The notes under the pieces are model-generated. The model did not search any database and had not been told where the DNA came from. It was given only the letters and a program-made list of their open reading frames with translations. Positions 11,659 through 46,273 of a stretch of 64,000 nt of DNA are shown one piece after another. The stretch's first letter is position 1; every line of letters begins with the position of its first letter. A program made the translations under genes and the position numbers. The stretch is from Rickettsiales bacterium UBA4270 (lineage in GTDB: Bacteria; Pseudomonadota; Alphaproteobacteria; Rickettsiales; Deianiraeaceae), in assembly GCA_002395105.1 (NCBI GenBank), contig DGWA01000011.1, positions 9,840 through 73,839 of the forward strand, given 5' to 3'.

Positions 11659-12928
11659 TTTTAAATTTAATTGTAAAAACACAAACAAAGAAATAAATTT
11701 TTATTATTTTTTATCACTTGGATCAAATATAGGAAATAAAATTAAAAATATTGATACAGCAATAGAAAAACTTAAAGATATAGGTTGTAAAATTCTTCAA
11801 ATTGCACCATATTACAAAACAAAACCACTTTTACCAGACGATGCAGATAAAAATTACAATAAAATGTTTTATAATACTGTTATAGAAATTGAAACAAATT
11901 TCGAACCACATGAATTTCTTAAAAAAATAAAACAAATAGAACTTAAAATGGGACGTCCAAAAAAACATCAACATTGGTCTCCAAGAATAATAGATATAGA
12001 TATATTATATTGCAAACAAGGAATAAAACCAATATTCATAGCAGAAAAAACATTATCAATCCCACACAAAGAAATATTTAATAGAGCTTTTGTTTTAGAT
12101 CCACTAGCACAAATTGCTCCAAATTTAGTTATAAATTCGAAGAATATTTTGTCAGAAAGCAAAAAACACAGACAACACCAAAGTGCAAAAATGAAAATAA
12201 TAAATATAAACAACAATTCATTTTCAGGTGATGGAATAACTGATCCTATGGAAATAGAAAAAAAAATTAAATATCTTACAAAAAAAAGAGTTGCGTTTAT
12301 AGATATAGGCGCAGAAAGTACAAACCCACTTGCAAAACCTATTTCTTCAAAAGAAGAAATAGATAGACTAAAAAAATCAAATATTATAAATACAATAAAA
12401 AAATATAAAACAAATGGAGTAAAATTTTCAATTGACACATATCACCCAGAAACCGCAGATTTTGCAATAAAAAATGGTTTCGACGTAATAAACGATGTAA
12501 ATGGATTTAAAGATGAAAAAATGTGGAACATTATGCAAAAAAATAATAATATTTGTGCAGTAATAATGCATTCTATAGTACCAAATGGAACAAAAAAAAT
12601 GTGTATCAATAACAATATAAACATAATAGAAGTTTTAAATAAATGGGTTGAAAACGTAATAGAAAAAGCTAATTTCTATAAAATAGATAAAAACAGAATA
12701 ATAATTGACTATGGAATTGGATTTGGAAAAACGGCAGAACAAGATCTATTTATAATAAATAACTTTAATAAAATTAATAATAATAGTCTTCTAGTCCTAA
12801 TAGGTCATTCAAGGAAAAATTTTTTAAAATTACTTGGAGCAAAAAACATAGATGATAGAAAAAAAATAACAAAAAAAGTATCTTTAAAATTAACAAAACA
12901 TGGAGCCGATATTTTAAGGTTACACTGA
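11633..12928 (+). CDS. folKP: Bifunctional HPPK-dihydropteroate synthase (FolK-FolP fusion)
   Basis: The N-terminal half is HPPK-like ('LSLGSNIG...', 'WSPRIIDIDIL', 'IPHKEIFNRAFVLDPL'). The C-terminal half is DHPS ('NNSFSGDG', 'DIGAESTNP', 'SIDTYHPE', 'GIGFGKT', 'GHSRKNF', '..DILRLH*'). The exact start among several Met codons at 11633-11654 is uncertain. Confidence 0.85.
   Translation: MLNMKSMNNFKFNCKNTNKEINFYYFLSLGSNIGNKIKNIDTAIEKLKDIGCKILQIAPYYKTKPLLPDDADKNYNKMFYNTVIEIETNFEPHEFLKKIKQIELKMGRPKKHQHWSPRIIDIDILYCKQGIKPIFIAEKTLSIPHKEIFNRAFVLDPLAQIAPNLVINSKNILSESKKHRQHQSAKMKIININNNSFSGDGITDPMEIEKKIKYLTKKRVAFIDIGAESTNPLAKPISSKEEIDRLKKSNIINTIKKYKTNGVKFSIDTYHPETADFAIKNGFDVINDVNGFKDEKMWNIMQKNNNICAVIMHSIVPNGTKKMCINNNINIIEVLNKWVENVIEKANFYKIDKNRIIIDYGIGFGKTAEQDLFIINNFNKINNNSLLVLIGHSRKNFLKLLGAKNIDDRKKITKKVSLKLTKHGADILRLH

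Positions 12929-46273: not shown

Follow-up and report, generated by a model that had tools for sequence, protein, structure and literature searches.

Proteins longer than 10,000 amino acids (aa) are rare in bacteria. Most of those described so far belong to Omnitrophota or to one of a handful of other phyla, and the Omnitrophota giants carry many transmembrane regions and divergent SecA(-like) DEAD domains (bioRxiv 10.1101/2023.11.21.568195). The giants of the Chlorochromatium epibiont are RTX- or haemagglutinin-like (bioRxiv 10.64898/2026.03.19.712371). Here we describe an open reading frame (ORF) of this size class, encoding 11,117 aa, from the Rickettsiales bacterium UBA4270; it lies within a 64,000-nt stretch of DNA (assembly GCA_002395105.1, contig DGWA01000011.1, positions 9,840 to 73,839) that was analysed as a whole and is called the window below. 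Like the giants of Omnitrophota and Chlorochromatium, the protein exceeds 10,000 aa, belongs to a small-genome bacterium living on or in other cells, is mostly unannotated and beta-rich, and is presumed to serve attachment or manipulation of a partner. However, it differs from them in having two hydrophobic segments, MORN units and a USP-type deubiquitinase-like domain and in coming from the Alphaproteobacteria, and it shares none of their defining features; in particular, no SecA domain was found by Pfam in the giant. A full-text literature search for "giant gene" together with Rickettsiales returned no report of a protein above 10,000 aa in this order. We consider it fairly probable that the ORF encodes a genuine, lineage-specific giant host-interaction protein, combining adhesin and effector, under diversifying selection.

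MARTX toxins are characterized by glycine-rich repeat blocks, a type I secretion system (T1SS) signal and an inositol-phosphate-activated cysteine protease domain (CPD). The giant resembles them as a very large single chain possibly joining delivery or binding regions with an enzyme, whereas the MARTX hallmarks are not seen in it. A USP-domain protein is also known from Burkholderia (TssM), and within the Rickettsiales the CE-clan deubiquitinase effectors Orientia OtDUB, Rickettsia RickCE and Wolbachia CidB adopt an Ulp1-like fold and measure approximately 1,000-1,400 aa. Like these three, the giant would be a large modular Rickettsiales effector with a deubiquitinase, yet it differs in fold class (USP, not CE) and in size and, judged from the absence of Pfam matches, has no sequence relation to them. 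To our knowledge, the Rickettsiales deubiquitinase effectors all belong to clans other than USP. USP effector candidates have been reported from a few symbionts, namely CAHE_0028 of Cardinium hertigii and Aasi_0770 and Aasi_1805 of Amoebophilus asiaticus (PMC3486910). The giant shares with these a host-dependent bacterium, a eukaryote-type core with Cys, QDE/QQD and His boxes, and the host ubiquitin system as presumed target. However, the Cardinium and Amoebophilus USPs are ordinary-sized and their cores are highly conserved with eukaryotic USPs (PMC3486910), whereas the core of the giant lies below Pfam detection and sits at aa 10255-10600 of 11,117. A USP-type deubiquitinase, of a class known from few bacterial symbionts, in a protein with a ratio of non-synonymous to synonymous substitution rates (dN/dS) of ~2-3 over the regions tested is unusual.

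The giant ORF comprises 11,117 codons from an ATG start to a single TAA stop and occupies window positions 12920..46273 on the minus strand, with no in-frame TGA or TAG in its translation. The original prediction gave no strand; the N-terminus lies at 46273, and the deubiquitinase-like domain and the tail lie at low coordinates. The remaining five frames across the same interval contain 456-2,036 stops each, and their longest stop-to-stop stretches measure 36-193 codons, so that the earlier limit of 152 codons for the other frames holds for start-initiated ORFs and fails for stop-to-stop stretches, with a maximum of 193. With a random-codon stop probability of 0.099 derived from base composition, the log10 probability of 11,117 open codons is approximately -504, and chance, as originally argued, cannot explain the open frame. 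The GC content is 24-30% along the gene, matching the flanks, and in the protein K, N, D, E, I and Y predominate, whereas Trp occurs only 18 times. A reading with genetic code 4 was considered and is irrelevant, given zero in-frame TGA codons.

The single 33.35-kb ORF of 11,117 aa that had been proposed is also called in separate assemblies. Specifically, the 11,117-aa ORF is intact on a Logan contig of 66 kb (SRR5322641), whose retrieved portions match the window at 100% identity. A second haplotype carries an 11,126-aa call on a 181-kb ENA contig (ERZ12289773) and on a 46-kb Logan contig (SRR12081293), 98.8-98.9% identical, although one set of reads may underlie both contigs. An open C-terminal fragment of 1,730 aa comes from haplotype 3 (ERZ27256871), which is more divergent. 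Look-ups with the neighbouring PTPS, aminotransferase and deformylase returned the window haplotype only, whereas MerR yielded haplotypes 2 and 3. No DNA repeat within the gene exceeds 45 nt and notable tandem repeats are absent, so that repeat-driven misassembly is unlikely; an internal protein BLAST of the giant likewise returned one significant match only. Taken together, these findings confirm that the giant ORF is a genuine gene and no assembly artefact.

The divergence between haplotypes, compared over three haplotypes and ~4,800 of the 11,117 codons, reveals how the gene evolves. In the N-terminal 2,788 codons, the window and haplotype 2 differ by 147 substitutions, distributed 66/57/24 over the three codon positions, and by two 3-nt indels; Nei-Gojobori counting assigns 15.5 of them to synonymous and 131.5 to non-synonymous changes (dN/dS 1.9), as against 32 synonymous and 26 non-synonymous changes in twelve neighbouring genes pooled over the same two haplotypes (0.20; Fisher p=1e-10 versus the giant). 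A neutral model based on the observed mutation spectrum and base-specific mutability predicts 36.5 synonymous, 104 missense and 6.1 nonsense changes in this region, versus the 15.5, 131.5 and 0 observed (binomial p=8e-6 for the synonymous deficit; P=0.002 for the lack of nonsense changes). The C-terminal ~2,000 codons behave in the same manner, with 8.5 synonymous and 71.5 non-synonymous differences to haplotype 2 and 30.8 and 268 to haplotype 3, to which the amino acid identity is 86.8% and from which at least 10 in-frame indels separate the window. The ~380 C-terminal differences likewise include no nonsense change, and every indel of the giant gene among the compared regions is a multiple of three. 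The housekeeping genes flanking the gene in haplotype 3 are 97.8-99.0% identical in nucleotide sequence, with a dN/dS of 0.12. LPB93, which is transition/transversion-aware and was run with gap-flanking codons masked, gives a dN/dS of 2.8-3.3 for the giant in four comparisons and 0.14-0.38 for the neighbours. In the comparison of the window with haplotype 3, zero-fold sites of the giant differ by 6.5% and four-fold sites by 3.4%, versus 0.6% and 4.4% in the neighbours. Stops and frameshifts in the reading frame are thus strongly selected against. The purifying selection originally proposed stands for the frame, in which stops are lacking and indels preserve the phase, and does not extend to the amino acids, whose dN/dS of ~2-3 contrasts with 0.1-0.4 in the neighbours. 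Amino acid replacement that outpaces silent change in a protected frame is the pattern expected under diversifying selection by a host or competitor.

A dN/dS at or above 1 would also fit lost constraint, and with it the notion that the ORF is non-functional or artefactual, be it an assembly chimera or a decaying gene still open by luck. We regard this as scarcely credible. The chance of the open frame is as low as given above, the same ORF is obtained from separate samples and assemblers, approximately six nonsense changes would be expected among the 147 N-terminal substitutions where none is seen, and all indels are in frame. Moreover, synonymous changes fall below the neutral expectation, which loss of constraint cannot yield, and it therefore cannot explain the divergence pattern of the giant.

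The haplotype differences cluster at aa ~200-600 and ~1900-2400. The latter peak (window 39000-40300, minus strand) holds 67 of the 147 N-terminal differences in 1.2 kb, and because silent divergence also rises there, by about five-fold, it suggests recombination with a more distant allele. A diversity-generating retroelement was considered as a source of the variation and rejected, as the substitutions are mostly ordinary transitions, occur in both directions and show no adenine-specific pattern.

The C-terminal region of the giant contains the putative enzyme, whose features are as follows.

14474..15511, minus strand: USP-type (peptidase C19) deubiquitinase-like domain, aa 10255-10600, assigned from homologues and motifs.
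15449..15475, minus strand: Cys box NTSNTCFFN, aa 10267-10275, with putative catalytic Cys10272; aligned with P0001-P0003 and the USP6/USP15 Cys boxes.
14600..14665, minus strand: His box YVLSGFSKHFGESAERGHYVWY, aa 10537-10558, with putative catalytic His10554; followed by EFND (Asn10573/Asp10574).
12923..14473, minus strand: C-terminal tail, aa 10601-11117, ~520 residues, with no Pfam match, few Gly/Pro and runs free of both.

Four USP landmarks are recognizable by eye, NTSNTC(10272)FFN, EQQDPSEY, KHFGESAERGH(10554)YVWY and EFN(10573)D(10574). An Asn is present five residues before the Cys, and N10267-T-S-N-T-C10272-F-F-N aligns with G-x-E-N-x-G-N-S-C-Y-F of three ENA metagenome proteins from related rumen bacteria, P0001, P0002 and P0003. 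EQQDPSEY, at aa 10379 between the Cys and His boxes and invariant in the three haplotypes, corresponds to the QDE/QQD box that has been defined for USPs and is conserved beside the ubiquitin-tail channel (PMC3486910). The His box follows H-x-G-x4-G-H-Y, with EFN10573D10574 located 19 residues past His10554, and is aligned with P0001-P0003 and, via a joint profile, with USPs in the PDB. The Cys box and the catalytic residues are invariant in the three haplotypes, the His box has one substitution in haplotype 3, and the domain of haplotype 3 contains an 8-aa loop insertion.

The assignment of these motifs proceeds through homologues. An exhaustive HMMER search of the last 1,117 aa against 1.84 billion representative proteins returned a single match, P0001 (384 aa, E 9.4e-6), in the His-box half, in agreement with the earlier remark that the protein was not recognised as a described family. 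In a pairwise BLASTP comparison (E 1e-13), the giant domain and P0001 align over the whole domain at 25% identity, and their Cys and His boxes coincide. P0001 in turn scores 35.1 bits on Pfam UCH, above the cut-off of 23.9, over profile positions 2-233 of 254, and P0003 scores 26.9 bits, also above 23.9. A joint profile of the giant domain, P0001 and P0002 retrieved 36 PDB sequences at E<=1, all of them USPs (USP6/Ubp6, USP28, USP15, USP4, USP8 and USP18 among them; best E 0.0013), with both boxes aligned. P0001-P0003 are the only detectable homologues of the giant, at 22-25% identity over the domain, and are proteins of 384-890 aa whose USP domain is N-terminal and which have neither MORN units nor the body of the giant. 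The gene for P0003 lies on a 54-kb rumen contig of 31% GC (L027), ~6 kb from a coaX-terminase pair whose products are 82% (coaX) and 77% (terminase) identical to those flanking the giant and which has the same arrangement. A related bacterium that shares this pair carries P0003, which indicates that USP-type effectors exist in the clade and that the giant would carry a divergent copy. By transitive homology and motif conservation, the USP assignment is well supported. The eukaryote-like deubiquitinase domain originally proposed is thus recovered through the UCH members P0001 and P0003 and the aligned boxes, and not by a direct Pfam or PDB match.

P0003 itself (890 aa, L027 10001-12673) continues past its catalytic domain with a long low-complexity region rich in N and Q and a C-terminal stretch rich in K and R, and P0002 shares part of this extension.

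The USP domain is the most constrained C-terminal part: its dN/dS is 1.0 (0.76 in the core blocks), compared with 2.7 outside the domain, and a normal approximation from counts gives p ~0.004 for its lower non-synonymous rate. The tail is the fastest-evolving part, with a dN/dS of 4.5 versus haplotype 3 (4 synonymous and 80 non-synonymous differences). Across the compared haplotypes and codons, the amino acid sequence is under diversifying selection and the putative enzyme core is comparatively protected. A protease-like domain followed directly by so variable a segment raises the alternative of a self-processing precursor, in which the USP-like papain-fold domain would act in cis to cut the polyprotein, freeing the variable tail or further fragments in the manner of the MARTX cysteine protease domain. 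An 11,117-aa chain would plausibly be processed, and the domain is too divergent for Pfam UCH. However, P0001 (384 aa) and P0003 (890 aa) carry the domain N-terminally in far smaller proteins, which is a misfit with polyprotein cutting, and both are bona fide UCH members; in addition, the QQD box, which lies near the ubiquitin-tail channel in USPs (PMC3486910), is retained and invariant. We therefore hold self-processing to be unlikely.

Beyond the USP domain, the giant is nearly devoid of detectable relatives. The last 1,500 aa matched none of 8,000 word-sharing candidate proteins, the giant itself included, and the giant was returned by neither protein library (word-sharing or 1.84-billion representative), from which very long proteins may be missing; the absence of homologues is thus weak evidence regarding other giants. 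Scans of genome and metagenome contigs with the C-terminus or the USP region found no relative, and a contig scan with aa 1-1000 found generic MORN proteins only. A tblastn search of the giant against loci from related Rickettsiales metagenome-assembled genomes (MAGs) gave no match, and against the P0003 locus matched the USP domain and no other part of the giant. Approximately 95% of the chain has no assignable family, and it is unusual for a giant to be non-repetitive and to consist to this extent of unique sequence without a homologue in billions of proteins.

The body of the giant was examined by hydropathy, by Pfam and NCBIfam searches on 1,000-aa tiles and by internal profiles, which together identify the following elements.

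46205..46273, minus strand: N-terminal hydrophobic segment, aa 1-23, MTPVLLVTFLLLTVATGITSFYN, with a Kyte-Doolittle 19-aa mean of 2.01.
45374..45973, minus strand: MORN cluster 1, aa 101-300, 5-6 units; Pfam MORN 28.1 bits, with weak MORN_2 and weak NCBIfam LIC20035 adhesin matches.
44768..45010, minus strand: 'NCD' module copy, aa 422-502, beta-hairpin; iterated profile search.
42467..42841, minus strand: 'NCD' module copy, aa 1145-1269; BLASTP to aa 5608-5677, 42% identity, E 1e-8.
38294..38761, minus strand: MORN-like cluster, aa 2505-2660; motif hidden Markov model (HMM), weak Pfam, iterated profiles.
35924..36268, minus strand: MORN-like cluster, aa 3336-3450; motif HMM and iterated profiles.
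34976..35344, minus strand: MORN-like cluster, aa 3644-3766; Pfam MORN E 0.021, motif HMM, iterated profiles.
31973..32242, minus strand: MORN-like cluster, aa 4678-4767; iterated profiles.
31925..31996, minus strand: second hydrophobic segment, Gly/Ala-rich, aa 4760-4783, IIKTIAGAFAGAISLPVLGVTYLA, hydropathy 1.75, directly after a MORN cluster.
29174..29503, minus strand: 'NCD' module copy, aa 5591-5700, the modelled copy; BLASTP, iterated profiles, AlphaFold2.
28856..29104, minus strand: MORN-like cluster, aa 5724-5806; iterated profiles.
28271..28543, minus strand: 'NCD' module copy, aa 5911-6001; iterated profiles.
27401..27856, minus strand: MORN-like cluster, aa 6140-6291; Pfam MORN E 0.0074, motif HMM, iterated profiles.
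20561..20923, minus strand: MORN-like cluster, aa 8451-8571; weak Pfam, iterated profiles.
19724..20323, minus strand: MORN-like cluster, aa 8651-8850; motif HMM, weak Pfam, iterated profiles.
18248..18463, minus strand: MORN-like cluster, aa 9271-9342; motif HMM and iterated profiles.
17594..18202, minus strand: K/E-rich linker, probably helical, aa 9358-9560, 26-30% K+E.

Hydropathy along the whole giant detects two hydrophobic segments only, the first of which, at aa 1-23, agrees with the N-terminal hydrophobic anchor proposed earlier; it has no basic residue ahead of it and an acidic stretch behind it. The second, at aa 4760-4783, is a possible membrane helix or could be a membrane-insertion element. 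MORN (including weak MORN_2) is the sole Pfam family on the tiles. PF02493 passes its cut-off of 22.5 bits at aa 157-173 (28.1 bits; three stretches within aa 1-1000) and matches more weakly at aa 2573, 3711, 6202 and 8529, and the NCBIfam tiles give one weak match only, the Leptospira MORN-type adhesin (LIC20035). A motif-seeded HMM finds 12 strict (Y-x-G-x-[FWY]-x2-G-x3-G-x-G) and ~21 total MORN-like units along the giant, and iterated profile searches with 100-aa tiles resolve ~11 MORN clusters from aa 101 to aa 9342; MORN units scattered along the whole length had been anticipated from the sequence.

Iterated profile search additionally defines a novel module of ~70 aa, termed 'NCD' after its conserved N-C-D-x-x-G core, in four to five copies. 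AlphaFold2 models it from five internal copies as all beta-hairpins with moderate confidence, at a mean predicted local distance difference test (pLDDT) score of 66 and 70-83 in 10-residue core blocks. A Foldseek comparison of the model with the PDB gave nothing significant (best E 0.12), the top matches being OspA single-layer sheets and Rhs shells. A further duplicated pair, found in the iterated tile searches, consists of aa 651-750 and the similar aa 9827-9892. Tandem Ig-like repeat arrays were not found; the giant has almost no internal sequence repeats, and Pfam returned no matches to such arrays. The K/E-rich stretch noted earlier at 17.6-18.2 kb is borne out in composition, and its heptad character is marginal, with a score of 1.34 versus a shuffle maximum of 1.33.

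Since beta-hairpin-like sequence with MORN units makes up more than 95% of the protein, the giant could instead be a structural adhesin or surface fibre, whose size gives reach to ciliate or other cells and in which the USP-like domain is a degenerate, non-catalytic passenger. The weak match to the Leptospira adhesin model points in this direction, as does the attachment of the relative Deianiraea to Paramecium (bioRxiv 10.1101/479196). On the other hand, the catalytic Cys, His and Asn/Asp and the motifs flanking them are invariant while their surroundings have diverged by 13%, nowhere in the C-terminal 1,700 aa is the non-synonymous rate lower than in the USP core, and tandem repeats are lacking, unlike in known giant adhesins. 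A purely structural role consequently appears doubtful to us.

A beta-rich body preceding a hypervariable C-terminal tail also recalls antibacterial polymorphic toxins of the Rhs or contact-dependent inhibition (CDI) style, in which a long delivery region ends in a variable toxin, here the tail. Rhs shells are among the top, non-significant Foldseek matches of the 'NCD' module, and YD-like motifs are mildly enriched (1.4-2.2-fold above shuffles), chiefly at aa 6500-8000. However, no RHS/YD model (Pfam PF05593, TIGR01643) matches any of the 1,000-aa tiles, at E<=10 for Pfam and E<=1 for NCBIfam, and no sequence periodicity was found anywhere in the giant, including a regular ~20-aa YD repeat; the YD-like repeats of the original prediction are thus reduced to a modest motif enrichment. 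Furthermore, the tail differs between haplotypes by point substitution and not by cassette replacement, no immunity gene follows it (next comes HPPK-DHPS, a folate-synthesis gene that is convergent with the giant and overlaps it), and the USP domain indicates a eukaryotic target. We accordingly give an antibacterial toxin very little weight.

The membrane-active N-terminus, the beta-hairpin modules, the eukaryote-directed enzyme, the host-dependent bacterium and the arms-race evolution together argue for a giant that binds and modifies the host. In the host-interaction protein that we favour, the N-terminal hydrophobic segment would hold the chain in the bacterial inner membrane or pass it through that membrane, and the ~10,000 mostly beta-hairpin residues, with ~11 MORN clusters and the novel 'NCD'-like modules, would form a long reach-and-bind region for the host membrane or cortex. 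The USP-class cysteine protease (Cys10272/His10554/Asn10573 or Asp10574) would strip ubiquitin or a ubiquitin-like modifier from host targets and might, for example, blunt ubiquitin-dependent recognition of the bacterium; the ~520-residue tail comes after it. That the protein is exported, where it resides at the surface or in the host, what its substrate is and that it acts as an enzyme are all inferred.

Several observations weigh against this interpretation. The hydrophobic segment at aa 1-23 is without the basic n-region typical of a Sec signal, and the segment at aa 4760-4783 could place the two halves of the giant on opposite sides of a membrane. No autotransporter, two-partner secretion (TPS) or other secretion domains were found in the Pfam tiles and no type V domains in the NCBIfam tiles either, and a search for the RTX motif GGxGxD (GG.G.D) found none. 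The USP region of the giant matched nothing in Pfam even at E<=10 (the UCH PF00443 gathering threshold of 23.9 bits is not reached), gave a chance match only in a PDB sequence search, and was modelled by AlphaFold2, from a 3-sequence alignment only, at a pLDDT of 29.9. Additionally, the dN/dS estimates come from three haplotypes, with no outgroup, and from ~4,800 codons at the two ends of the gene. A recognizable C-terminal secretion signal was not seen either, and the extreme C-terminus varies among haplotypes, ending in ...TSSV, ...TSSMRP or ...TSSVQP (...NTSSV in the window).

A stronger version of the host-interaction protein, which we put forward only tentatively, is a 'mega-effector': a single chain tethered to the Rickettsiales cell would extend through or along the ciliate cortex by means of its MORN and beta-hairpin modules and present the divergent USP inside the host, its whole length being under pervasive positive selection as a 33-kb arms-race surface. 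The gene would have arisen in a single genus-level lineage, the flanking genes being retained in a relative that has no such gene; restriction to one lineage in this way is unusual. The locus offers a test case for the de novo building of very large interaction proteins by host-associated bacteria and for keeping 33 kb free of stops at 27% GC.

The gene is flanked by ordinary bacterial genes. At its stop-codon end it shares 9 nt (window 12920-12928) with the end of HPPK-DHPS, which is convergent, followed by PTPS, aminotransferase, deformylase, MerR, LicD and Type ISP restriction enzyme genes. Beyond its start lie a divergent terminase-large-subunit-like gene, coaX, HMG-CoA reductase, LysM/M23 peptidase, T2SSE ATPase, LpxC, S2, EF-Ts, MltG and LigA. 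The 158-nt gap between the giant and the terminase-like gene contains a promoter-like element, and a clear Shine-Dalgarno sequence was not seen in it.

46331..46361, minus strand: promoter-like TTGCAA, 19-nt spacer, TATAAT, read by eye, ~58 nt upstream of the ATG.

This putative element was omitted by a consensus promoter scan, its spacer being longer than 18 nt.

The best matches of the nearby ribosomal protein S2 come from rumen MAGs that carry the label uncultured Rickettsiales: SRR12081294_bin.85 at 88% identity, and goat-rumen RGIG3562/3563, SRR873596_bin.56 and UBA4311 at 68-74%. This agrees with the reduced, host-associated genome that had been supposed. The bacterium is probably an uncultured rumen Rickettsiales of the UBA4311/Deianiraea group, and the organism recurs in at least 8 read sets or metagenomes. 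According to a published description, UBA4311 is a "transition" family of host-dependent bacteria, among them an extracellular parasite of ciliates, Deianiraea (bioRxiv 10.1101/2023.01.31.526412). Deianiraea has lineage-specific MORN-repeat proteins and is found attached to Paramecium (bioRxiv 10.1101/479196); MAGs of the Deianiraeaceae are mostly of terrestrial or gut origin (PMC10847448). An association with rumen ciliates is probable, and the giant offers a concrete starting point for studying the interaction of uncultured rumen Rickettsiales with the ciliates presumed to host them.

Four neighbouring genes deserve mention in their own right. The terminase-large-subunit-like gene (Pfam Terminase_6C; window 46432-47901, plus strand), which adjoins coaX, has a counterpart in the related rumen bacterium at L027 2930-4393 with 77% aa identity, and shows 6 synonymous and 1 non-synonymous changes between haplotypes, indicating strong constraint; it looks like a domesticated phage or gene transfer agent (GTA)-type gene and not a prophage remnant. 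An HMG-CoA reductase gene (Pfam PF00368; window 50221-51285, plus strand) places a mevalonate-pathway enzyme in a Rickettsiales genome. The Type ISP restriction-modification gene (Type_ISP_C and N6_Mtase; window 1200-4781, minus strand, and L048 2415-5963) encodes 1,193 versus 1,182 aa between haplotypes. Finally, an orphan 636-aa ORF without a Pfam match (window 6582-8492, minus strand) evolves as fast as the giant, with proportions of non-synonymous (pN) and synonymous (pS) differences of 0.077 and 0.076 and 14 gap openings versus haplotype 3, and with called lengths of 624-636 aa across haplotypes; it may be a second host-interaction protein.

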